Shown here: positions 2,710-60,625 of the stretch, one piece after another
Layout of the letters: the number at the start of each line of letters is the position of its first letter
Position numbering within the stretch: the first letter of the stretch is position 1
Source: Chloroflexota bacterium
GTDB lineage: Bacteria > Chloroflexota > Dehalococcoidia > Lucifugimonadales > UBA3495
NCBI GenBank assembly: GCA_027623675.1
Contig: JAQBVF010000005.1
Span: 32,001 to 96,000, forward strand
Reading direction: 5' to 3'
DNA: 64,000 nt
Translations under genes and position numbers: made by a program
Notes under the pieces: generated by a model
What the model was told of the DNA's origin: nothing
Database searches by the model: none
What the model saw: only the letters and a program-made list of their open reading frames with translations

Positions 2710-5700
2710 ATTCCCGACAAGCCAAAAAAGGTGCTCGTGATCGGTTCTGGCCCTATCGTCATTGGGCAAGCGGCTGAATTCGACTACGCCGGAACACAGG
2801 CCTGCAAGTCCCTTCGGGAAGAGGGCGTTACAACCGTCCTCGTCAACTCCAATCCGGCCACGATCATGACCGACCAGGGCATCGCCGACCGCGTTTATAT
2901 CGAGCCGCTTACCGTGGAGGTCCTGGAACGGATCATCGCCAGGGAGCGGCCCGATGGCATCCTGCCCACCTTGGGAGGCCAGACCGGGCTTAACCTGGCC
3001 GTGGAACTGGCCGACGCTGGAGTCCTTGAACGCTACGATGTTGGCCTTCTGGGAACGCCCTTGGAGACCATTCGGCGCTCCGAGGACCGGGACTTCTTCC
3101 GCACCTTCCTCCACGAGATCGACGAGCCAGAGCCCGAGAACCAGAGCGTTAACACCATGGAACAGGCCTGGGACGCCGCCAAACGGATGGGACTTCCTCT
3201 CGTGGTCCGGCCGGCCTACACCCTGGGCGGCAGCGGCGGCGGCATCGCCAACAACGAGGAAGAGTTCGAACACTTCGCCCGTTCCGGTCTGGCGGCTAGC
3301 CCCATCTCCCAGATCCTGTTGGAACGCTCTCTCGTCGGCTGGAAAGAGATCGAATACGAAGTGATGCGCGACGGCGCCAACAACTGCATCACCATCTGCA
3401 ACATGGAAAACCTGGACCCAATGGGCGTCCACACCGGCGACAGCATCGTGGTGGCCCCCAGCCAGACGCTGAGCGACCGGGAATACCAGATGCTCCGCAC
3501 CGCCAGCATCAAGATAATCAGGGGATTGGGCATCGAGGGCGGTTGCAACGTCCAGTTCGCCCTGCAGCCCCATCCCAGCGTCTCCAAGGCCCTGGGACAG
3601 GAATGGAACCCAGAATCGCCCTATTACGTGATTGAGGTCAACCCCAGGGTTAGCCGCAGCTCGGCTCTGGCCAGCAAGGCCACCGGCTATCCCATAGCCA
3701 GGGTCGCCGCCAAGATCGCGGTGGGCAAGAGGCTGGACGAGATCGAAAACGCCGTCACCAGACAGACCATGGCTGCATTTGAGCCGGCCCTGGACTACTG
3801 TGTGCTCAAGATTCCCCGTTGGCCATTCGACAAGTTCCCCCACGGTGACCGCCGGACCACCACCCAGATGAAAGCCACCGGCGAAGTCATGGTTATCGAG
3901 CGGTCATTCGAGGCTGCTTTGCAGAAGGGCGCCCGCTCGTTGGAGTTGGGCGGCCGGACCATGCTCTGGGAGGACCCAGCCTGGCGGACCGAAGGCAAAC
4001 TGTCTCTGGACCAGCTCCCCCTTGGCCCCAACGATGAACGCCTGTGGGCCTTGATGGCGGCGCTGCGGCGGGGAGCCACGGTGGCGGAATTGGTCGAGCA
4101 TACCTACATAGAGCCGTGGTTCATCAACGCCATGGAGCGCATCGTGAAGATGGAACGGCGGCTGCTCGGCGAGCAGCTCACGCCCAGCCTGCTCCGGTCG
4201 GCCAAGCGGATGGGCTTCTCCGACGGTCAGGTGGGCACCCTGGCCGACATGCTGCCGGAACAGGTGCGCAACCAACGTCACGAATGGGGCCTGCGTCCCG
4301 TTTACAAGACGGTAGATACCTGCGCCGCGGAATTCGAGGCCGTCACCCCCTATTACTACAGCACCTATGACCAGGAGAACGAGGCCCCGCCCTTAAAGGG
4401 CAGGAAGGCGGTGGTCATTGGCAGCGGCCCGATCCGCATCGGACAGGGCATCGAGTTCGACTATTGCAGCGTCCATGCCTCTTGGGCGCTCTCCGAGGCC
4501 GGTGTCCGCAGCATCATGATCAACTCCAACCCGGAGACTGTATCCACCGACTTTGACGCCAGCGACCGGCTCTATTTCGAGCCGCTGGACGAAGAATCGG
4601 TCCGTGACATATTGGAGAACGAAGAGGTTGACGACGTCGTGCCTCCCTCGGTGGTGCAGTTCGGCGGCCAAACGGCCATCAACCTGTCCCAGTCGTTGTC
4701 CATGGCCGGCATGCCCATCTTGGGTTCGAGCGCCGAGGCCATCGACATCGCCTCCGACCGGCACAAGTTCGAGGACTTTTTGGCCCGGCTGGGCATTCCC
4801 CAGCCGCCTGGCGCAGCTGTAACCTCGGTAGAAGAGGCCCTAAAGGTGGCCCAGAACATCGGCTATCCCGCCGTGGTGCGCCCCAGCTACGTCTTGGGCG
4901 GGCGGGCTATGGAGATCGTCCAGAACGCCACCGAGTTGATCTACTACCTTACGGCGGCGGTGGAGATGTCCCCGGACAAACCGGTGCTGATCGACCGGTA
5001 CATGGAGGGGAAGGAGTGTGAGGTCGACGCCATCTGCGACGGGGAGCAGGTGCTGATTCCCGGCATCATGGAGCACGTGGAGCGGGCCGGAGTCCATAGC
5101 GGAGACTCCATGGCCATCTATCCCGGCCTTAACCTCAGTCCACGCGAGGTCGAAACCATCGTCGATTACACAACCCGGATCGGCCTGGCCCTGGGGGTTA
5201 AAGGCTTGATGAACGTGCAATTCGTCATCCACGGCGGCGCGGCTTACCGCAGCCCCAGGACCCACCAAGACGACGGCGAACCCACCACGGTTTACATAAT
5301 CGAGGTAAACCCGCGCGGCAGCCGGACCATCCCATTCATATCGAAACTCACCGGGGTGCCGGTGGCGAAACTGGCGACTCGGATCATGCTGGGAGAGACG
5401 TTAACGGGCTTGGGTTTCCAGGGCGGATTGTGGCCGTCCCAAAACCTGGTTGGGGTAAAGGCCCCGGTGTTCTCCATGGCCAAGCTGGTGGGCGTTGACT
5501 GGCATCTGGGGCCGGAGATGAAATCCACCGGCGAAGTGATGGGGGTCGACCGCGATTTTCAAAAGGCGCTGACCAAGGCCCTATTGGCGGCCAACCTGGA
5601 GCTGGTTCCGGGGACCGGGGTGCTCCTCAGTATCGCCGATCAACACAAGGCGGAAGCAGCCTCTTTGGTGCGGGACCTGAATAACGCCGGCTGCCTGCTC

Positions 5701-6012
5701 TACGCCACCGAGGGCACGGCGGCGATGATCTCGGCGATGGGCTTGCCGGTGAACATGACCACCAAGAAGCTGAGCGAAGGTCATCCCAACGTGGTGGACG
5801 TGATCGAAGACGGCAGCGTGAAGGCAGTGATAAACACCATCTCTGGCGCTCCAGACGTCATGCGCGACGGGTTCTACATCCGGAGGGCGGCGGTGGAGAA
5901 GCACATACCCTGCTTTACCTCGCTAGACACCGCCCGGGCCGCCGCCGAGAGCCTGTCCATGGAACCGGCGTCATACAACATCGCCACCATCGGCGAATAC
6001 CTGAACGGCTAG
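2710..6012 (+). CDS. carB: Carbamoyl-phosphate synthase large subunit (probable ATT start at 2710)
   Basis: GSGPIVIGQAAEFDY and GSGPIRIGQGIEFDY halves, two IEVNPR motifs, C-terminal MGS domain; AAGGAGG at 2698-2704 is 5 nt before in-frame ATT-CCC (IPDKPKKVLVIG matches the usual MP..KKVLVIG start). Confidence 0.97.
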   Translation: MPDKPKKVLVIGSGPIVIGQAAEFDYAGTQACKSLREEGVTTVLVNSNPATIMTDQGIADRVYIEPLTVEVLERIIARERPDGILPTLGGQTGLNLAVELADAGVLERYDVGLLGTPLETIRRSEDRDFFRTFLHEIDEPEPENQSVNTMEQAWDAAKRMGLPLVVRPAYTLGGSGGGIANNEEEFEHFARSGLAASPISQILLERSLVGWKEIEYEVMRDGANNCITICNMENLDPMGVHTGDSIVVAPSQTLSDREYQMLRTASIKIIRGLGIEGGCNVQFALQPHPSVSKALGQEWNPESPYYVIEVNPRVSRSSALASKATGYPIARVAAKIAVGKRLDEIENAVTRQTMAAFEPALDYCVLKIPRWPFDKFPHGDRRTTTQMKATGEVMVIERSFEAALQKGARSLELGGRTMLWEDPAWRTEGKLSLDQLPLGPNDERLWALMAALRRGATVAELVEHTYIEPWFINAMERIVKMERRLLGEQLTPSLLRSAKRMGFSDGQVGTLADMLPEQVRNQRHEWGLRPVYKTVDTCAAEFEAVTPYYYSTYDQENEAPPLKGRKAVVIGSGPIRIGQGIEFDYCSVHASWALSEAGVRSIMINSNPETVSTDFDASDRLYFEPLDEESVRDILENEEVDDVVPPSVVQFGGQTAINLSQSLSMAGMPILGSSAEAIDIASDRHKFEDFLARLGIPQPPGAAVTSVEEALKVAQNIGYPAVVRPSYVLGGRAMEIVQNATELIYYLTAAVEMSPDKPVLIDRYMEGKECEVDAICDGEQVLIPGIMEHVERAGVHSGDSMAIYPGLNLSPREVETIVDYTTRIGLALGVKGLMNVQFVIHGGAAYRSPRTHQDDGEPTTVYIIEVNPRGSRTIPFISKLTGVPVAKLATRIMLGETLTGLGFQGGLWPSQNLVGVKAPVFSMAKLVGVDWHLGPEMKSTGEVMGVDRDFQKALTKALLAANLELVPGTGVLLSIADQHKAEAASLVRDLNNAGCLLYATEGTAAMISAMGLPVNMTTKKLSEGHPNVVDVIEDGSVKAVINTISGAPDVMRDGFYIRRAAVEKHIPCFTSLDTARAAAESLSMEPASYNIATIGEYLNG

Positions 6013-6243
6013 AGTGTTCCGGTTATTGTCCTGGCCGCCAATTTTCCCATTCCCCTGCCAAAAAGGGTTATTCCCTTTTCCTTTTACCAAAGATAATTAG
6101 CGCCTAATTGCACGGTTTGGGTCATTCGATTTGTGGTCTTGGGCGGGCGGTCTGCTTGCTTGGAATCAACTTTGCATCAGGGTGGCAAAGGATGATTAGT
6201 CCGACCACCAAGGTTCTTATTCGTAGAGGCATTATTCTTTGAT

Positions 6244-7257
6244 TTAGCCTCTGATAAGCGGATCACCGTCGTTGCCAAGATAACGCCCCGAAGATCCAGA
6301 GTGGCTCCAGTCACGAGACCGAAAAACGTCATAGATCATATATATGGCGTTGGCAATCCGGTCTCTCCCGCGAAACCCCGGCCAGGCGAAGGCCAAGTGC
6401 CGAGGCTTTCTTAGCCGCTTTGTGATCAGGTCAAGTTCCTTATCTCCCAGAGTGTTTAGACGGTGGGCGTGCTCACACAGAGATAGGGCGTAATCCAAGT
6501 AGCCATACACAACACAGATGGTGAGACCCTTCAAAAAGGCGGCTTTGCTGCAATCGGCCTCTATCAAAAGTGCTTCCGGGGTTTTGAGATATAACGCGTC
6601 GGCGAACACCATTTGGCCTTTCCTGCCTCCGATATATTTGGCGTTCTCTCGCTTCCAGTCGATGGGTCTCATGTCGAATAAAGCGAAACCCAAGCTTCGA
6701 AGATATTGGTCTACGTCCGAGAACAGGGGTTGTTCTTGGTAAAGTTCGGCGAATTCGACTTCCACTTCAATGCCAAATACCGATTTGTCCAACGTTTCAG
6801 ACCCGCCCTGAAGTATCAACAACTCAGTGCCCTGGGTATCAAGCTTGATGAAATCAACACTATCAATGCCGCCTTCCCTCAAAGCCTGGTCAAGCGGCTT
6901 AACCGTAACTTTGGTGGTGGATAATATGTCCCAACGGTCAGCCTCGGGGAATTCCGACAAGAACTTTGCATTGGGTCGAAGGAGCGATGAACACCCCGGG
7001 CTCCGCGTGTTGTAGAAATCGGCTTCTCCAGCCACATTCGAAAGCGCCGTATTTAGGTAGGTGTGACCTCTTGAGCCGCTAGATTCATTGGCCAGTGCTC
7101 GATACGCCTCGGGGTCGGGTTCAAACCCAATCACCTGCAAGTGCTTCCTGCATTGGTTCCAACGGGTGTGGATACCGCCCCTGACTCCTATATCAACCAA
7201 CCGTAGAGGAAATTCGTGGTAATAGGCATCAAAGGTAGGATCGAAAAACGGATTCAT
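6244..7257 (-). CDS. FkbM-family SAM-dependent methyltransferase
   Basis: VDIGVRGG, GFEPD, DFIKLDTQGTEL, EVEF...Y..QPLF; start MNPFF assumed; visibly AT-richer than neighbours. Confidence 0.88.
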   Translation of the reverse strand: MNPFFDPTFDAYYHEFPLRLVDIGVRGGIHTRWNQCRKHLQVIGFEPDPEAYRALANESSGSRGHTYLNTALSNVAGEADFYNTRSPGCSSLLRPNAKFLSEFPEADRWDILSTTKVTVKPLDQALREGGIDSVDFIKLDTQGTELLILQGGSETLDKSVFGIEVEVEFAELYQEQPLFSDVDQYLRSLGFALFDMRPIDWKRENAKYIGGRKGQMVFADALYLKTPEALLIEADCSKAAFLKGLTICVVYGYLDYALSLCEHAHRLNTLGDKELDLITKRLRKPRHLAFAWPGFRGRDRIANAIYMIYDVFRSRDWSHSGSSGRYLGNDGDPLIRG

Positions 7258-27272: not shown

Positions 27273-27812
27273 CTAGCCCTCGCCGGTCAATACGCGGACA
27301 ACCTGAGGGGCCAGCTCTTCAGCCCTGGTTCGCAGGGCCTCCCGGGACAGGTTCTCTATGGGGTGCGGAGTGAAGATGGTCGGGTAATCGGGCGCTCCCC
27401 ACATCTTGGCCATGCCCTGGGCCGTCGGCACGAACCGGTCGGTGCAGATGGTGGCCGATGGTATGCCGGCATTCTCCACGTGGATCCCGTCGTGCACACT
27501 GCACGCACTGCAGGACCCTCAATCACCTATCGCGATGACCACCGAGTCTACTTTCTCGGTCAATTCCTTCAGGGCTGTCGGGTCGGCTGCTTTGGAGGCG
27601 CTGGGCTTCCGGTGCCAGATTACCTCGGTTATCTCATAGCGCGTCCGCAGTACCTCGGCGAGTTCCTCCAGAAGCACGTCCGCGTTGCGCTTGCTGTCGT
27701 CGATGATTCCCAACCGGGTTCCGGCCAGGCTGGCCAGCCGGGGCGCTCCGTCGAAGGGGGCGATTATGGGTTGGGTGACCGGGTTGACCAGTACATGTTC
27801 GCTCTGGGCCAT
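27273..27812 (-). CDS. UGSC-family selenoprotein (179 aa; Sec at TGA 27519-27521)
   Basis: ORFs 27519-27812 and 27273-27497 are in one frame; junction reads AIGD-TGA-GSCSACSVHDG. Confidence 0.88.
27482..27518 (-). promoter_or_regulatory. Candidate SECIS element
   Basis: Directly 3' of the UGA: GGGTCC/GGATCC lower stem, GTGCGT/GTGCAC upper stem, G-starting loop at about +17. Confidence 0.55.
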
Positions 27813-53068: not shown

Positions 53069-54202
53069 ATGCCCAGCGAACTTGACCCGTCTGGTAGCCA
53101 CGCGAAGTCCAGAAAACAACTTGACCGCAACAAACTGAGCCTCGGCCTGTTCGGCGCCAATTGCTCCGGCGGCCTGGCAGTCACCACCGTTCCCGAGCGA
53201 TGGGAAGCGAGTTGGGAGAACAACCAGAAACTTGCCCGTATGGCCGATGACGCCGGCCTGGATTTCATGCTGCCGCTGGGCCGTTGGAAGGGATACGGCG
53301 GTGTTACCGAACATAACGCATCCAACTTTGAGAGCCTGACCTGGGCGACCGGCATCCTGGCCAGCACCAGCAACATCATGGCTTTCGGCACGGTCCACGT
53401 CTCGGTATTCAACCCGGTGGTTGCCGCCAAGCAGATGGTCACGGCCGACCATGTGGGCCAGGGGCGGTTCGGACTCAACATCGTCTGCGGCTGGAATTTC
53501 GATGAGTTCGACATGCTGGGCGTCAATCTCGCCCAGCACGACGACCGGTACGATCAGGGGCAAGAATGGATCGACGTCATCACCAGGGCGTGGTCTTGCG
53601 ACGAGCCCTTTGACTACGAAGGCAGGTTCTATCAGGTCCGCCAGACCGACATCAACCCCAAGCCCTACGGCCATGAGCGGCCGCTGATCGTCTGCGCCGG
53701 AAACTCGCCCAGGGGCAGGGAGTTCGCGGCCCGCAACGCCGACATGATGTTCACCAACCTGCGGAGCGAACTGGACGAGGTGCCCGCCAACACCGCGGCG
53801 CTCAAGAAGATGGCTGCGGGATACCACCGGGAGATCGGGGTGTTTTCCAACGTCGCCGTGATCTGCCGCCCGACCCGGAAAGAGGCGGAGGAGTATTTCC
53901 GGTATTACGCGGTGGAGAACGCCGACCACGATGCGGTTGAGAACATGATAATTGGAAGAGGGCTGAAGAAGCCGGGCGTGCCGGAGGACGTTATACAGGC
54001 GGCAAGGCTCCGCGCGGCCGGCGGCAACGGTGCGATGCCGATCATCGGCGGACCGGACGAGGTGGTGGCAACGATGAAACGCCTATCCGAGTCGGGGGTG
54101 ACGGCCCTGGCCATCGGACTGACCAACTACCTGGAGCATTTCCCCTACTTCCGAGATGAGGTGCTGCCACGGCTGGTCCGCCAAGGGCTGCGCGCCGAGT
54201 AA
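53069..54202 (+). CDS. LLM-class monooxygenase (RutA/SsuD-like)
   Basis: GLFGANCSGG, RWKGYGG, PV.AAKQ..T.DH...GRFGLNIVCGWN. Confidence 0.92.
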   Translation: MPSELDPSGSHAKSRKQLDRNKLSLGLFGANCSGGLAVTTVPERWEASWENNQKLARMADDAGLDFMLPLGRWKGYGGVTEHNASNFESLTWATGILASTSNIMAFGTVHVSVFNPVVAAKQMVTADHVGQGRFGLNIVCGWNFDEFDMLGVNLAQHDDRYDQGQEWIDVITRAWSCDEPFDYEGRFYQVRQTDINPKPYGHERPLIVCAGNSPRGREFAARNADMMFTNLRSELDEVPANTAALKKMAAGYHREIGVFSNVAVICRPTRKEAEEYFRYYAVENADHDAVENMIIGRGLKKPGVPEDVIQAARLRAAGGNGAMPIIGGPDEVVATMKRLSESGVTALAIGLTNYLEHFPYFRDEVLPRLVRQGLRAE

Positions 54203-54221
54203 CTGACTGCTAGGCCTTCTG

Positions 54222-55376
54222 CTAGATACGTCCGTTCGGCTCCAACCCCAGAGCAACTCGGCCATACTGCAGCCCGCCCAACTCCATGATGAAGCCGTCG
54301 CGGCGGACCGCGGCCTGTATGTCCCGGTGGTGGCGCTGGAAGGCCGACGAATCGAATATGGCGTGGCCTCCGCTGAGTTCGAAAAGCCGGTTGACGGAGC
54401 TAAGGCAGGACTGGGCGACGAACGCCTTGTCCCGGCGAAAACGTGCCCGCTCCAGCGTGCTGAACGCCTCACCGTTGCGGGCCTTCTTAAACGTCTCCCG
54501 GATGTCGGCCCGCATCAGGGCGCGCGCCGCATCAAGCTCGGCCGATGACTGGGAGAGCCGCACCTGAACACCCTCAGAGTCCGCGGTGCGGCCCGGTCCC
54601 GATGTGCCGGTGAGCCGCTGGGTGAACTCGTCAATCATGGCCATGGTGATGCCGATCATCGGGGCAACCAGGTCCCATCCCAACAAGACCAGAGCCGGCA
54701 TGCGGTAGCGGTCGTCCTGGTGGATATCCCAACCGGTCCAGTCCCCGTCTCCGGCTTTCCTGCTTTCCGTGACCCGGTGACCGGGAACAAAGACGTCCTC
54801 CACGACGATGTCTTTGCTTCCGGTGCCCTTGAGGCCGGAGACGAACCAGGTGTCTATGATTTCATAATCGGAGCGTGGCAGCAGCATCCACACCAGACCG
54901 CCGGGTGTGTTTCCGCCCAGCATCACCCAGGCGGCGGCATCGCTCCCGCTGGAGAACTTCCAATGCCCGGAGAGCCGGTACCCTCCGGTCACCTTCTCCA
55001 ACGTCGAAACGCCCGGGTTCAGGGAACTGGAGCAGAGGACATCGGGGCCGTCCCCGAAAACTTCCTGCTGTGCTTCGAGCGGCCAGAATCCAATCAGCCA
55101 CGAGTGGGCCGACCAGATGCTGTAGCACCAACCGGTGGAGGCGCAGCCGCTGGACAGCACTGCACCGGCCTCAAGCATGGATCCGTATTCGACGTCCAGC
55201 CCGCCGAACCTCCGAGGAACTCCGATCCGGTGCAGACCAGACGCCAATATGTCCTGGACCGATTCATCCGGGACCCGGCGCAGCAACTCAGTGTGGGCCG
55301 CCCGTTCTTTGAGGCCTGGTACCATGGCCGACGCTCTTTTAAGGAGTTCGTCCAGAGTCAGGGCTTGGTCAGCCAT
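54222..55376 (-). CDS. Acyl-CoA-dehydrogenase-fold flavin monooxygenase (HsaA/HpaH C2-like)
   Basis: P..FGG, LSG.W.FSSG.D.A.W, DTW.V.GL.GTGS, QR..RD. Confidence 0.9.
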   Translation of the reverse strand: MADQALTLDELLKRASAMVPGLKERAAHTELLRRVPDESVQDILASGLHRIGVPRRFGGLDVEYGSMLEAGAVLSSGCASTGWCYSIWSAHSWLIGFWPLEAQQEVFGDGPDVLCSSSLNPGVSTLEKVTGGYRLSGHWKFSSGSDAAAWVMLGGNTPGGLVWMLLPRSDYEIIDTWFVSGLKGTGSKDIVVEDVFVPGHRVTESRKAGDGDWTGWDIHQDDRYRMPALVLLGWDLVAPMIGITMAMIDEFTQRLTGTSGPGRTADSEGVQVRLSQSSAELDAARALMRADIRETFKKARNGEAFSTLERARFRRDKAFVAQSCLSSVNRLFELSGGHAIFDSSAFQRHHRDIQAAVRRDGFIMELGGLQYGRVALGLEPNGRI

Positions 55377-55408
55377 TGGTCCCCTCAGTCACGGTTGGCT
55401 CCAGCCTC

Positions 55409-55846
55409 CTAGCTGGCGGGCTCTGCGATGAAGACCGGGATCACGCGGTCGGTCTTGTCTTGGTATTCCTGGTACGGCGGGTAGGCTTCGACGGCTATGT
55501 CCCACAGCCGCTTCCGCTCGGACGCGTCTACCACCTCTCTCACCCGCATGGAATGGACCGCCGTCTTGTCGCGAATCTCAACGTTGGGGTCCGCCTTCAG
55601 GTTGTAATACCACACCGGGTGTTTGGGCGAGCCGCCCTGGGACGCCACCAGGATATAGTTGCCGCCGTCCACCGCCCGCATCAGGGGGGTCTTTCGGATG
55701 GCGCCCGTCTTGTTGCCTTGGTTGGTTACGATGATGACCGGCAGCCCGGTGTCTCTAAGGGTCAGGCCCTGGGTGCCCTGGCTGCCTTCATATAATTCCA
55801 CCTGATCTCTGACCCACTCGCGGGCGCTGGGTATGTATTCAGCCAT
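55409..55846 (-). CDS. Deazaflavin (F420)-dependent nitroreductase-family oxidoreductase (Ddn-like)
   Basis: G.KTG.IRKTPL, VAS.GG.PKHP.WY.NL.A.P, Y..YQ.KT.R.IPV. Confidence 0.93.
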   Translation of the reverse strand: MAEYIPSAREWVRDQVELYEGSQGTQGLTLRDTGLPVIIVTNQGNKTGAIRKTPLMRAVDGGNYILVASQGGSPKHPVWYYNLKADPNVEIRDKTAVHSMRVREVVDASERKRLWDIAVEAYPPYQEYQDKTDRVIPVFIAEPAS

Positions 55847-55876
55847 CGTGATCACCTCTTCGATCTTCGGAACGGT

Positions 55877-56587
55877 CTAGTGTTCGGCGGCGTCCGACGC
55901 CACGGGGTTGAACGTCACCCGAAGCACGGGTGCGTTGGACTCGTTGCGCCATTGGTGCAGGGTATCCGGCGGGACCAGTATGGCGTCGCCCTCGGTTACG
56001 GCGTAGTCAATGCCGCCGCAGGCCAGGACGCCCGTGCCTTCCAGCACATAGACCACATGCTCCCACGCGTGGGTGTGGCCGCCGGTCTCGGGATGGCTCA
56101 CCGCGCCCGGGGCCATGGCGCCGTTATACAGCATCACGTAGGTGGGCACGCCGTCGTTCAAGCCAAGGATGCGGCTGCCGGTTTGGGCGTTCAGGTCGGC
56201 GAAGTTGCGGATGACCGGGGCTTCGCCTGTGCCGGCGCCGCCGTTGTTGCCGGCGCCTCCGCTCTGGGCCGCGATCAGCGGGTTGATCTCGACGCGGCGG
56301 ATGTTACCCTTGCCGCCGTCATTCAGGGTGTAGTGGTCCACATTGCCGGGGATATACATGGCATCGCCGGCTTTCACCGGGTACTCCTTGCCGTCGCAGT
56401 GGAGAGTGCCAACGCCCTCCATGATGTAGACCTCGTGCTCCCACTTGTGGATGTGGTGAGAGCTGGTCTTGCCCGGCTCGATCACCGAGTAGCTCATGGT
56501 GCAGGTGGGCGGGTTGTCGTCCAGGGAGATGAGACGGGCCGGCTGGCCTGGCTCGAAGGTTCTGAAATTTCTGATCACTGGTTCCAT
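55877..56587 (-). CDS. Bicupin protein
   Basis: Two H.H.WEH..Y..EG.G ... GDA...P...H repeats. Confidence 0.9.
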   Translation of the reverse strand: MEPVIRNFRTFEPGQPARLISLDDNPPTCTMSYSVIEPGKTSSHHIHKWEHEVYIMEGVGTLHCDGKEYPVKAGDAMYIPGNVDHYTLNDGGKGNIRRVEINPLIAAQSGGAGNNGGAGTGEAPVIRNFADLNAQTGSRILGLNDGVPTYVMLYNGAMAPGAVSHPETGGHTHAWEHVVYVLEGTGVLACGGIDYAVTEGDAILVPPDTLHQWRNESNAPVLRVTFNPVASDAAEH

Positions 56588-56755
56588 GGTGGCGGCTCCT
56601 TGTTCGGATATTCGTTACTAGTATAGCGGCAGAATCTTGCCGCAACGGAAGGCGCTCTCGCGGTCCAGTCAAGATTAATCGGACTGCCACTGGATATCAA
56701 CAGGGCGGGGTTAACGCGCCAGGGTTTTTCCAATATGACTTAATCGTCGATCTCG

Positions 56756-56859
56756 CCGCTCAGCCTGAGGCTCTCGAAGGGACGGCGCCGGTCTAGGTGC
56801 TGGTCAAGAGAAACAGGGTCCAACCCCAAAGGGTGGTTCGTTAGGCTCACCATGAGCGG
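56756..56859. repeat. Inverted pair of REP-like units (REPIN-like)
   Basis: CCGCTCAGCCTGAGGCTCTCGAAGGGAC ... GGTTCGTTAGGCTCACCATGAGCGG. Confidence 0.65.
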
Positions 56860-56897
56860 CCATGTTACCTAAATGTTCTCGATGACAAAAACCCTGG

Positions 56898-58193
56898 TTA
56901 ATGGGCTGGGGCCATGCCGGCGCCCGAGGGCCTTCGCTCCCTGATGGTGAATACCGTCACAGTGGCGATGATCAAGAGGATGATGTTGCTCCAGATGGCG
57001 ATGTCGTAGGTGCCTCGGGAGTCGTAGAGCAGCCCGCCCAGGTAAGCGCCTAAGCCCGAACCCAGGGGCATCACGGCGAACATGGCACCGTAGATGGTGC
57101 CAAGTTTGGTGGTCCCGAACCGGTCTGAGGCATAGGCCGCGGTGATGGAAACCACGGCATTCCAGGAGAACCCCACCAGCAGCACCCCGGCGAGCAACAC
57201 GCCGATGCCAAGAGATGGAACATTGAGGAACGGTATCCCCATGGAGAGCAACACGAGGATGAAACCCAATGCCCTGAGATTGTAGGAAAAGCTCAGGTAG
57301 ATCCGCCGGCCGTGTCCGTCCGAAAGGTGTCCCAATACCAGCGCCCCGGCGATGGCGGCGGCGCCGATCAAGCTGAACGCTCCGGCGGCCACCATCTTGT
57401 GGTAGCCCAGGTCCTGCACGTAGGTGACGAAATGAGCGTTCACGAAGCTCATGGAATAGCCTCAAACGAAGTATCCCAAGGTTAGCCGGTAGAACAGAGG
57501 GGTATGGAACGCTTCCCGGACAGTTGCGTCCCGCCCCAGTAATTTCTCCCCATCAGACCTGGCTTGATGGCCGGCGGTTGTGCCGGCCCCAAACGGTTCC
57601 AACCCCATGTCCTGAGGCTTGTTTCGAATCAGCAGGAGCCCGGCGGGCAGCACCAGCACCAACAGCAACAAGCCTAAGAACCAGTAGGCATCTTTCCAGT
57701 CGAAGAGCACGAGGAAGAGCGAAGCTGCCGGTACCAGGATCATCGCCCCGAACGAACCCGCGCCGCTGACCAGCCCCATGGTCAGACCCCTGCGGGTGTG
57801 GAACCAGCTGCCGACCACTTTCGTCAGAATAGGGCCGGTGCCGAGGGTGATGCCGATGCTCATGATGGCGAACAGGGCGTAGAGCTGGCCCAAGCTCTCG
57901 ATGAACGGTATGAACAACAGTATCGTTCCCATCACCGCCACGCCGGAGAGCATGGCCGTCTTGGCGCTGTAGCGGTCGGCCAGATACCCCGCCAACGGAC
58001 GCAGCAGGCCAGAGATCATGAAGGTCAGGGCGAAGGCCAGCGAGAGGGAGCCGCGGCTCCAGCCGAACTCCTCGGTCATCGGCTTGAGAAAGACGCCGAA
58101 CGAGAACTGGCCGCCGGCAACCCCGAACGACACCAGCACGCATCCCGCCACCACGAACCAGCCGTAGAAATACTTCCGGCCGAATAATCTCAT
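56898..58193 (-). CDS. MFS transporter (431 aa) with in-frame TGA at 57462-57464, putative Sec
   Basis: Both ORF halves share a frame; LGYFV-TGA-GYSMSF; MFS motif A in both halves (G.LADRY, G.LSD..GRR). Confidence 0.8.
57432..57452 (-). promoter_or_regulatory. Candidate SECIS hairpin
   Basis: UGA+9 nt: ATGAGC-TTC-GT-GAA-C-GCTCAT, apical G at +19. Confidence 0.5.
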
Positions 58194-58265
58194 TCTTGGC
58201 TCTCCGCGGTTATACAGCTGGACCGGTCCGGGATTCCTCGTTTGTTTCGGGAAACTACCTGTTGC

Positions 58266-58295
58266 AAGCCGGGAATCACAAATGATTCCCGGCTT
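58266..58295. other. Perfect 13-bp-stem hairpin between rhodanese and MFS
   Basis: AAGCCGGGAATCA-CAAA-TGATTCCCGGCTT; no U-tract. Confidence 0.7.
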
Positions 58296-58348
58296 CGCTT
58301 AAACCTTAGCGAAACATTAGTGATCTTGGTTGAGGTCTGGCCGCCCCG

Positions 58349-59218
58349 CTAGCCGGTCTGCATGGGCAATGACGGGTCTGACGCCCATTCTGACATCGAA
58401 GCGTCGTACACCGCCACATTCTCGTATCCCAGCAACGTCAAGATGAAGGCGTCGTTGCTGGCCGCGATCCCCCCGCCGCAGTAGGTGATAACCCGCTCTG
58501 CGGGGTCCGCGCCGACCTGGGCGAACCGTTCCGCCAGTTGCTCGGCTGGGAGATAGGCGTGGGTGACCGGGTCCATCAGGTCGCCCGCCGGTACGTTGAC
58601 GCTGCCGGCGATGCGCCCGGCGCGCCCGTAGTTGGCGCCGCCGCTGCCCAGGTGCTGTTCCTGGCTTAACGCATTCAGCACGCAGGCGGCGCCCTGTTCC
58701 AACGCCGCCAGCACCTCGCTCTTATCAGCCATGAGCCCGGTCCTGGGTCTGGCGTGGAATATGGTGGGGGGATAGTCCCGTTGTTCCGTCGTTACCGGCC
58801 GGCCCTCCAGCTTCCATTTTTGAAGGCCGCCGTTCAGGACAAAGGCGTTGTCGAATCCGAAAGCCCGGAGCATCCACCAGATACGGGTCGCCCAGGAACC
58901 GGACGTTGAGTCGTACAGCACCGCCCGGGCGCCCACGCCCACCCCGTATCCGGACATGGCCCTGGCGAACTGTTCAACCGGCGGGAGCATGTATCGGAAG
59001 GCGGCAGACCGGTCCGAGAGGTCGTTTACGAGGTCGGCATGGCCGGCGCCGGGGATGTGTTCCGCTGCCCAAGACTCGCGCCCGCTCGCCGCCCGGATGC
59101 CGCCGCTGCCATCGGGCAGGTTAAATGCGGTGCAGTCCAGAACGCGTATGTCACTGTCGTTCAGATGCTCGGCGAGCCAATCCGTCTCCACCAAGAATTG
59201 TGGATACTTAAATGGCAT
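58349..59218 (-). CDS. Tandem-domain rhodanese sulfurtransferase (SseA-like)
   Basis: LV.TDWL, HIPGA, R.WW.L..FG, GRIAGS.N.P, YCGGG, YD.S..EW. Confidence 0.94.
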   Translation of the reverse strand: MPFKYPQFLVETDWLAEHLNDSDIRVLDCTAFNLPDGSGGIRAASGRESWAAEHIPGAGHADLVNDLSDRSAAFRYMLPPVEQFARAMSGYGVGVGARAVLYDSTSGSWATRIWWMLRAFGFDNAFVLNGGLQKWKLEGRPVTTEQRDYPPTIFHARPRTGLMADKSEVLAALEQGAACVLNALSQEQHLGSGGANYGRAGRIAGSVNVPAGDLMDPVTHAYLPAEQLAERFAQVGADPAERVITYCGGGIAASNDAFILTLLGYENVAVYDASMSEWASDPSLPMQTG

Positions 59219-59399
59219 CTTGGACCCTCCATTGATTTTTCCGGACCAGGTTATTCTGCCGGACCTGGGAAGTTTCGCCAGACTTGGGCTGGAGACCATG
59301 ATAGGTTACCTAATCTGGTCAATAATATCGCGGCCGGTGCTCGACATAACAGAGGGCAGTATTATCATTTTTATGATGGATCCCGTAAAGGGATATCGG

Positions 59400-59429
59400 T
59401 TGACGCTGGCATCGCGGCCCAACCATAAT
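59400..59429 (+). promoter_or_regulatory. Putative sigma70 promoter for the sulfite oxidase-like gene
   Basis: TTGACG-18 nt-CATAAT. Confidence 0.5.
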
Positions 59430-59551
59430 CCGGTGGGTAAGCACAACGGGAAGAGATGCCGGATAGGCTCGCGAAAACCGGTCTCCCGTCAGCAAGTTAG
59501 TCTGATTCTAGCCCAGGCTTCGGCCTGTGCCACCAACACTAGGAGGCTAAG

Positions 59552-60625
59552 ATGCCGGACCCAGCGTTGAATTCGTATAAAGACCTTAACGTTCTTTCCG
59601 CGGACCCGGTCTGTGCCGGGGTATTCCTGCGCGACATGGAAGCGCCCGTGTCTTCCACGGAGGGCCACTTCATCCGCAGTCACTTTCCGGCGCCTCAGGT
59701 GGAGGCTGCCGATTGGTCGCTGCCGGTCACCGGCGACGTGGACAACTCCCTTGACCTCAGTTACTACGACCTGCTCAATATGCCCAGCCACGAGGTCGTG
59801 AGCATCATGGAATGTGCCGGCAACAGCCGGTCGACCATGCAGCCCCCGGCTGAGGGCGTCCAGTGGGACAATGGGGGACTGGGCGTTTCACGGTGGAAGG
59901 GTGTTCCGGTCAAGACCGTGCTGGAACGGGCATCCCTCAAGGGCGTCGCCACCGACGTTTTGTTCGAGGGCCTGGATTCGGGCACCGAGCCGCACTCGGG
60001 TGGCGAACTGGTCTATGCCATGAGCGTGCCGCTGGCGAAATTGCTGGACCCCGACACCATCTTGGCCTATGAGATGAACGGCGAGACCATCCCCAAGGAC
60101 CACGGCTTCCCCGTCCGCCTGCTGGTTCCCGGCTGGTACGGCATGGCCTCGGTCAAATGGCTGGCCAAGATCACGGTTATGGACCACCCAAACTGCGGCT
60201 TCCATGAGATGGACTACCGCATATATCCGGCCACCGACGGCAAGAGCGACGCAAAAGCCAAGCGCGTCACCAAGCTGAAGGTTAAGTCGCTGATCAGCTC
60301 TCCGGTAAAAGGAGACGTCCTTTGCCCCGGCTCCCATACTATCAAGGGCGTGGCTTGGTCGGGCGACGGGCACATCACCAAGGTTGAGGTTAGCACCGAC
60401 GACAACCGCACCTGGCGCGAGGCCAAGCTGGAGGCGCCGGTCGGCAACTACTCGTGGCAGCACTGGGAGATTGACTGGGACGCAGCGGCTACGGGGCACT
60501 CGCTGCTCCGTTCCAGGGCCACCGACAGCCAGGGCAACGTTCAGCCCATGCTGGCGCCATGGAATTTCCGGGGCTACCAGGTGAACTCGATACATTCCGT
60601 GCCCGTCACGGTACGCAAGCCCTAG
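59552..60625 (+). CDS. Sulfite oxidase-family molybdoenzyme
   Basis: F.RSH, ECAGN.R, LAYEMNGE..P.DHGFPVRL.VPGWYG..SVKW, G.AWSG. Confidence 0.94.
   Translation: MPDPALNSYKDLNVLSADPVCAGVFLRDMEAPVSSTEGHFIRSHFPAPQVEAADWSLPVTGDVDNSLDLSYYDLLNMPSHEVVSIMECAGNSRSTMQPPAEGVQWDNGGLGVSRWKGVPVKTVLERASLKGVATDVLFEGLDSGTEPHSGGELVYAMSVPLAKLLDPDTILAYEMNGETIPKDHGFPVRLLVPGWYGMASVKWLAKITVMDHPNCGFHEMDYRIYPATDGKSDAKAKRVTKLKVKSLISSPVKGDVLCPGSHTIKGVAWSGDGHITKVEVSTDDNRTWREAKLEAPVGNYSWQHWEIDWDAAATGHSLLRSRATDSQGNVQPMLAPWNFRGYQVNSIHSVPVTVRKP

Follow-up and report, generated by a model that had tools for sequence, protein, structure and literature searches.

A candidate selenocysteine-containing transporter of the major facilitator superfamily in marine Dehalococcoidia

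The subject of this study is a major facilitator superfamily (MFS) transporter gene in a 64,000-nucleotide stretch of DNA from a Chloroflexota bacterium (NCBI GenBank assembly GCA_027623675.1, contig JAQBVF010000005.1, positions 32,001 to 96,000 of the forward strand; the whole stretch is called the window). Its reading frame on the minus strand is interrupted by a single TGA at codon 244. Comparison with related sequences makes it very probable that this UGA is read as selenocysteine (Sec) and that the gene represents a new selenoprotein family; on the same comparison we regard the gene as real and its UGA as recoded throughout the clade. The product would be a single MFS transporter with 431 residues and 12 helices, from the branch of oxalate/formate antiporters and SLC16-like proteins. 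Sec would take the place of the invariant cysteine of an F-V-C-G motif in the middle of transmembrane helix 7 (TM7), ten residues before a histidine that faces the cavity in the L-lactate transporter SfMCT, and the selenol would probably line or adjoin the translocation path. We assume that SelB together with Sec-tRNA(Sec) binds a small hairpin 9 nt past the UGA (UGAGC/GCUCA stem, GU loop) and brings Sec to the ribosome ahead of release factor 2. The gene and the codons at its TGA are the following.

56898..58193, minus strand: MFS transporter gene of 431 codons, with ATG at 58193, TAA stop at 56900..56898 and one TGA read through
57462..57464, minus strand: in-frame TGA, codon 244, the proposed selenocysteine codon; TGA in 40/40 sequences, Cys in distant homologues
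57453..57461, minus strand: the three codons that separate the TGA from the following ATG (245-247, Gly-Tyr-Ser), with variation as in translated codons

Conservation of the in-frame TGA and its pairing with cysteine

Two open reading frames (ORFs) of the minus strand, an upstream one at 58193..57465 (243 aa) and a downstream one at 57452..56898 (184 aa), share a common frame, and the gap between them consists of the TGA at 57464..57462 and the three sense codons GGC TAT TCC (context ..LGYFV-TGA-GYSMSFVNAH..). An earlier note, made from the letters of this DNA alone, had described the two ORFs as one frame broken only by the TGA, and we recovered the same coordinates and peptide context. It had also called the read-through product a normal-sized MFS protein of 431 aa with motif A in both halves. 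This description holds: the product scores 2.2e-53 with Pfam MFS_1 (181.8 bits against a cut-off of 33.4, residues 20-374), and motif-A-like stretches are seen by eye in each half of the read-through translation (GYLADRYSAK and GHLSDGHGRR). The Pfam profile score, the helices of an AlphaFold2 model and the Foldseek matches agree on an MFS protein with 12 TM helices that form two bundles of six.

The TGA is a fixed feature of the clade. Codon 244 is TGA in all 40 sequences compared (that of the window, 18 from genomes and 21 from metagenomes; 61-84% protein identity). The genome loci represent 18 species-level genomes, all named Dehalococcoidia or Chloroflexota metagenome-assembled genomes (MAGs); each of them has TGA at the homologous codon (18/18; 61-83% identity), and the frame continues to its normal end. 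A metagenome scan added 23 loci, of which 21 belong to the clade (71-84% identity) and carry TGA without exception (21/21); in the other two (L092 and L093, 38-39% identity) the F-V-C-G site was not located by motif search. The terminal stop of the same 40 genes is TAG in 26, TAA in 7 and TGA in 4 cases, with 3 not scored. The internal codon thus remains TGA while the terminal stop drifts, which argues against a plain stop, since a plain stop would drift likewise. The earlier note had proposed independent relatives as a check, and had named a different codon in the reads as an outcome that would speak against Sec; the relatives carry TGA, and a contig that the same study obtained from a second sample shows no differing letters across the site. 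In a search of 5.8 billion proteins the 120 best matches listed are all 238-259 aa long at 54-56% query cover and 63-100% identity, which indicates that gene callers cut these proteins at the same place.

Among the 40 sequences the variation in the nine nucleotides of codons 245-247 is confined to the third position of each codon and to one first position that exchanges Ser and Thr. There are no indels, and the synonymous diversity, i.e. how often sequence pairs with the same amino acid differ in the codon, is 0.48 and resembles that of the rest of the gene. Judged by this pattern, the three codons behave as translated, and the comparison at 61-84% identity likewise indicates that purifying selection acts on both halves of the gene. 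A relative from a long-read MAG (L028, 2501..3803) has a further TGA where the others encode Cys18 by TGC, and an extra base near codon 390 puts it out of frame. Faulty assembly, decay of the gene or another Sec codon may be the cause, and the sequence was left out of the codon statistics.

In more distant proteins the position is occupied by cysteine. All 19 full-length homologues examined (32-38% identity; chosen by hand from the 120 matches listed when the C-terminal part served as query) carry Cys at the position of the TGA within an invariant G-(Y/F)-F-V-C-G motif, and an invariant His follows ten residues after this Cys. Among the 29 paralogue loci of the class that were returned, the best match has Cys at the site in 27; the other two have Ser (L061) and Tyr with Cys one residue earlier (L069). 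The motif G(F/Y)FVCG, which the earlier note had given from recall, is thus found in both sets. A sample of 401 genomes of the class gave an MFS match at E<=1e-30 in 304 genomes. The close form was present only in the window's own genome, and the next best match was 40% identical and had no stop. No Cys form closer than 40% identity was found by the protein search or in the class genome sample. Two distant matches of the class that had been flagged with one TGA (G003, G127) were rejected as TGA forms, as their TGA is the terminal stop.

A quick maximum-likelihood tree of 48 rows (26 TGA and 22 Cys forms), rooted by midpoint only, unites the TGA forms in one clade (SH-aLRT 100) on a long stem. 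This clade is sister to Cys forms (support 99) and nested among other Cys forms. The topology would fit a single change from Cys to Sec that has been retained since.

As a control we considered a second MFS gene of the same genome with an in-frame TGA, at codon 359 (C47; contig 47, 14580..15905, minus strand; L095/L097). Of the nine relatives examined (57-68% identity), eight have Gly and one has Ser at the position of its TGA; of 36 further matches listed, 33 have no internal stop flagged, one has one TGA and two have one TAG. This gene was rejected as a selenoprotein gene and its TGA is probably a nonsense mutation or a sequencing error. Since its TGA aligns to Gly or Ser and not to Cys, the criteria used for the Sec assignment discriminate.

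Nucleotide constraint, candidate hairpin and selenocysteine machinery

The region 3' of the TGA was analysed in a codon alignment of 35 full-length sequences, reduced to 26 at <97% nucleotide identity. The features of this region are the following.

57420..57452, minus strand: zone of suppressed synonymous variation, codons 248-258, indicating an overlapping nucleotide-level constraint
57432..57452, minus strand: core hairpin ATGAGC-TTCGTGAAC-GCTCAT, a 21-nt palindrome 9 nt after the TGA and candidate upper stem-loop of a selenocysteine insertion sequence (SECIS)
57422..57462, minus strand: extended consensus hairpin from the A of the UGA to +42, with lower stem AGG/CCU and AY/GU around the core (RNAalifold -7.6 kcal/mol)

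Synonymous diversity falls to 0.187 in codons 248-258, compared to 0.492 gene-wide, 0.471 in the equally conserved codons 29-40 and 0.43 in codons 259-270. Of 423 nine-codon windows, the 11 with the lowest values (down to 0.175) each begin within codons 242-253, and none of 20000 amino-acid-matched site permutations was as low as codons 248-258 (p<5e-5). The suppression therefore points to a constraint on the nucleotides themselves, extending from about 12 to about 45 nt after the UGA. The synonymous-site comparison had been suggested in the earlier note, and the sites right after the TGA proved to be the most constrained of the gene.

Bacterial SECIS elements, for example that of E. coli fdhF, are coding-region hairpins directly 3' of the UGA, with a G/U in the apical loop approximately 18-22 nt downstream. 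The candidate hairpin resembles them in its location in the coding region directly 3' of the UGA and in its apical G/U: the G and U of its loop lie 19-20 nt after the A of the UGA. RNAfold gives a stem of 5-6 bp with a 9-nt loop; in an alternative form the same stem is extended by UU/AA pairs that close a CGUG loop, with one bulged pyrimidine. A UGAGC/GCUCA stem around UUCGUGAAY is present in 23 of the 26 relatives folded, with a length of 5 bp in most sequences and of 6 bp in that of the window, and 96.3% of the cells in the counted hairpin structure pair. L088 and L089 have a different 4-bp stem at this site (RNAfold). In L034, the most divergent member, three codons are changed and an 8-bp hairpin in another register is still formed around the same loop. 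The earlier note had proposed this hairpin with TTC paired to GAA around a 2-nt loop. The palindrome at 57452..57432, its distance of 9 nt from the TGA and the apical G/U stand, but the TTC/GAA pairing with so small a loop is sterically impossible. The extended lower stem is the weak part of the hairpin model.

The nearest Cys forms have the peptide ..M(S/T)FA(N/S)TH.. at this place, reading ATGAGCTTCGCCAACACTCAC, and possess neither the GUG loop nor the C-G closing pair. Two clade-specific replacements, Ala251Val (GCC to GUG) and Thr253Ala (ACU to GCU), account for the GU loop as well as for the closing C-G pair. After these changes GTG is found in 26/26 and GCT in 25/26 sequences.

The genome of the window (3.07 Mb in 48 contigs, 91.4% complete) encodes the machinery that Sec insertion would need. 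The profiles of selB (347.7 bits), selA (554.8 bits) and selD (380.3 bits) are all matched over their curated cut-offs, and a tRNA-Sec with anticodon tca is present (ARAGORN: tRNA-SeC). The check for selA, selB, selC and selD that the earlier note had recommended is thereby answered for this genome with selA, selB, selD and the tRNA. Five other genomes with the TGA form were checked as well: selA exceeds its cut-off in 5/5 and selB in 4/5. A second UGA-recoded gene, which the same note had suspected near 27519, is the ORF 27273..27812 of the minus strand (179 aa). With the TGA near 27519 it reads ..IAIGD-U-GSCSACSVHD.., which we take to be a UGSC-type selenoprotein motif, and the TGA is followed by a strong hairpin of 8 bp plus 5 bp (-23.1 kcal/mol over 66 nt). 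The loop of this hairpin is located at +18 to +24 and that of the candidate in the transporter gene at +18 to +26 from the U of the UGA.

The selD gene itself (L010; contig 3, 53424..54344, minus strand) has an in-frame TGA of its own (..SHCAG-TGA-AAKLSQ..), with a hairpin GGACCUGG/CCAGGUCC about 25-45 nt past its UGA. In a divergent relative (L031) a GRDB gene (glycine/sarcosine/betaine reductase component B) is located at 5248..6273 of the plus strand, about 1.4 kb downstream of the transporter gene; GRDB is a classical selenoprotein family. According to the BSepDB paper, Dehalococcoidia MAGs hold 46-49 selenoproteins, so that a setting rich in selenium is already documented for them.

Several points weigh against the assignment of Sec to codon 244. 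The core hairpin is small (-3.0 to -6.8 kcal/mol), the 71-nt region around it folds no better than its shuffles (z -0.90; 33/200 shuffles at least as good) and the minimum free energy structure of that region differs from the candidate hairpin. The covariation is not significant, as 66/500 shuffles reach it, because the sequence hardly varies. In principle the nucleotide constraint could be something other than structure. Unlike the bacterial SECIS elements, the candidate has a core of only 5-6 bp, and no match to an Rfam family was obtained for 57300-57560 at E<=10. It is also weaker than the two other SECIS-like hairpins folded in this genome, those of selD and of the UGSC-type gene. Of the five other carrier genomes, the one in which selB is not over the cut-off is a fragmented assembly (G404). 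Finally, the UGA is part of a UGAGG that is followed 7 nt later by an AUG, i.e. by a Shine-Dalgarno-like sequence and a start codon, and this ATG is invariant in 40/40 sequences.

The last point is the basis of an alternative in which the transporter is naturally split: translation would terminate at UGA244 and restart at AUG248 by means of the GAGG, and the two halves would assemble in the membrane. The downstream ORF indeed has its own ATG, and the synonymous suppression behind it could reflect constraints on initiation. However, the invariant Gly245 accounts for the GG, and the nearest Cys forms, which have no stop, share the Met. The break would, according to the model, fall into the middle of TM7 (helix 232-261), and the invariant Cys-Gly of the family motif would be lost. 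The 9-nt gap is always in frame and varies like codons do, so it is not free to vary as an intergenic spacer would be, and the internal stop is always TGA whereas the true stop drifts among TAG, TAA and TGA. Moreover, a hairpin that sequesters the AUG would hinder initiation. We consider the split transporter very unlikely.

A second alternative is Sec-independent read-through of the UGA by a near-cognate tRNA for Cys or Trp, with the downstream element as a general stimulator. In its favour, the sequence evidence reveals recoding and not the residue that is inserted. On the other hand, the genome has a complete Sec machinery and other selenoprotein genes (selD with its TGA, the UGSC type), the TGA pairs with Cys in homologues and the hairpin is placed at SECIS distance. 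Moreover, no bacterial membrane protein is known to us in which UGA is read through in a conserved manner independently of Sec, and we give this explanation only a slim chance. A pseudogene or an assembly error, for which one could cite the frameshift and extra TGA of L028 and the apparently plain nonsense TGA of the MFS gene C47 in the same genome, is effectively refuted by the TGA in 40/40 sequences from many assemblies, by the identical contig of the second sample and by the purifying selection on both halves, and its probability is negligible.

Protein structure, gene neighbourhood and possible substrate

If codon 244 is read as Sec, the residue is positioned within the membrane. The AlphaFold2 model (pLDDT 89.3, pTM 0.88) gives the following helix.

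57411..57500, minus strand: TM helix 7, residues 232-261 (DSSP on the AlphaFold2 model), which holds the F-V-U-G motif and His254

Residue 244 is the 13th of the 30 residues of this helix and thus located mid-helix; the placement at about TM7 by the earlier note was correct. It lies ten residues, or nearly three helical turns, to the cytoplasmic side of H254, at mid-membrane height, and presumably faces the central cavity.

The best folds of the PDB by Foldseek are OxlT (8hpk, TMq 0.79) and SfMCT (6g9x, TMq 0.77). SfMCT, a bacterial SLC16 homologue and L-lactate/H+ symporter, is also the best solved sequence match (5e-31, approximately 24% identity). According to the accessible text of its description (PMC6573034), the proton-binding site of SfMCT comprises H250 and D257 on TM7, D378 on TM11 and Y383, with H250 being a cavity-exposed proton site. 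In an ungapped alignment these four residues correspond to H254, D261, D391 and Y396 of the read-through protein. Across the family alignment H254 and Y396 do not vary, and D261 and D391 hardly do. The lactate-binding residues N276 and R280, in contrast, align with Ala280 and Ala284, and at the Sec position SfMCT has Gly, with Cys one residue earlier. The accessible SfMCT text makes no comment on the TM7 residues opposite positions 243-247. Since the proton site is conserved but the Asn and Arg are replaced, proton coupling and a substrate other than a simple monocarboxylate are most likely for this carrier. Judged from the alignment, it probably does not bind a carboxylate in the manner of SfMCT.

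The family profiles are in line with a distant kinship only. The nearest NCBIfam profile is that of the SfMCT L-lactate transporter (NF049980; 154.7 bits against a cut-off of 320), followed by the oxalate/formate antiporter family (TIGR00890, OFA; 111.7 bits against 374.85). The SfMCT equivalog was rejected for the score below its cut-off and the replacement of the substrate Arg R280 and of N276 by Ala. Membership in the oxalate/formate antiporter family was rejected for the score under the cut-off, and the kinship is one of fold and branch level.

Two genes next to the transporter gene have functions related to sulfur.

58349..59299, minus strand: neighbouring two-domain rhodanese-type sulfurtransferase (Pfam Rhodanese 2.6e-25, two stretches)
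59552..60625, plus strand: neighbouring sulfite-oxidase-type molybdoenzyme (Pfam Oxidored_molyb 1.3e-56 and Mo-co_dimer)

The region 53069..60625 around the transporter gene further encodes a luciferase-like monooxygenase, an acyl-CoA-dehydrogenase-type flavoprotein, an F420H2-dependent quinone reductase and a bicupin. Including the rhodanese and the molybdoenzyme, the genes of this cluster are typical of organosulfur or recalcitrant-carbon oxidation. Rhodanese genes identified by Pfam adjoin the transporter gene in 5 of the 18 other loci (L022, L025, L026, L027 and L030). The molybdoenzyme, the only neighbour that recurs by tblastn, does so in 3/18 (L022, L025, L029), and a Lactamase_B_3 protein is encoded nearby in 6/18 (Pfam). 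All loci with recurring neighbours fall into the closest subclade, and the genes around the divergent members are unrelated to these. The link to sulfur is therefore weak. The neighbours of the nearest Cys forms (L041-L044) showed nothing consistent. In three loci a second, ordinary MFS_1 gene directly follows the transporter gene (L027 3913..5253, L029 3938..5281, L034 3902..5416).

These neighbours allow for a tentative suggestion on the substrate, which might possibly be a sulfur-containing anion such as thiosulfate, sulfite or a thiol- or persulfide-bearing acid. A more doubtful proposal is that the TM7 selenol is a working part of transport and engages a substrate that bears sulfur or selenium in a short-lived Se-S or Se-Se contact or bond, i.e. 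that the protein is a chalcogen-relay carrier. If this were true, the transporter could be a thiosulfate, persulfide or selenium uptake route of deep-ocean SAR202 that feeds the adjoining rhodanese and sulfite-oxidase genes. The YeeE/YedE family, a predicted transporter selenoprotein, is also sulfur-related as stated in the accessible part of a 2026 review of prokaryotic selenoproteomes (PMC13188914). In the accessible text of that review and of a second source (PMC9312934), no specific high-affinity selenium transporter is known in prokaryotes, and a Sec-dependent carrier beside sulfur-transfer genes would be a candidate for sulfur or selenium traffic.

Comparison with known selenoproteins and transporters

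The MFS is among the largest families of secondary transporters, as the accessible text of PMC8154325 states. Neither MFS nor ‘major facilitator’ is named in the accessible text of the 2026 review (PMC13188914), and MFS is likewise not named in a 2022 selenoprotein review, in the deep-Sep paper with its supplementary family table or in the BSepDB paper, the supplement of which is possibly incomplete and has no matchable protein names. Full-text searches of the literature for selenoprotein with MFS and for SAR202 with selenocysteine returned nothing relevant. An MFS selenoprotein is thus absent from the bacterial selenoprotein catalogues searched, and the candidate is of interest for the selenol embedded in the membrane, for the function this implies for a widely conserved cysteine and for the consistent mis-annotation of the gene.

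A Sec that is fixed across a clade within a membrane helix would mean that it performs a chemistry that Cys does less well. It would also point to an unrecognised role of the invariant F-V-C-G cysteine in the much larger family of Cys forms. A practical consequence concerns annotation. The databases split the gene into two truncated proteins, by which at least 120 clusters at 90% identity are affected, so that, as far as this gene is concerned, both the inventories of transporters and the selenoproteome counts of marine Dehalococcoidia are in error.

The earlier note had remarked that a transporter is not a classical class of selenoprotein. This is right for the MFS, but other selenoproteins among membrane transporters have already been predicted. 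The accessible part of the 2026 review (PMC13188914) lists the YeeE/YedE thiosulfate family (GUxSG), SO_0444 Cu/Zn efflux (UxC), the SaoP permease, a MerT-like protein and a cation ATPase. The present candidate resembles the transporter selenoproteins described there in that Sec occupies a conserved-Cys site of an integral membrane transporter and is predicted from the pairing of TGA with Cys. It differs from them in its fold and superfamily, a 12-TM MFS protein with Sec in the middle of TM7 in the sequence F-V-U-G. Its lineage, going by the database names of the relatives, is that of marine Dehalococcoidia of the SAR202 type. Its closest counterparts in sequence are the F-V-C-G paralogues of Dehalococcoidia and Burkholderiales (Pfam MFS_1, MFS_4, YbfB-like). 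These differ from the candidate by an identity of at most 40%, by TGC or TGT in place of the TGA and by the lack of the downstream hairpin, and they share with it the TM7 motif, the His at +10, the length and the architecture.

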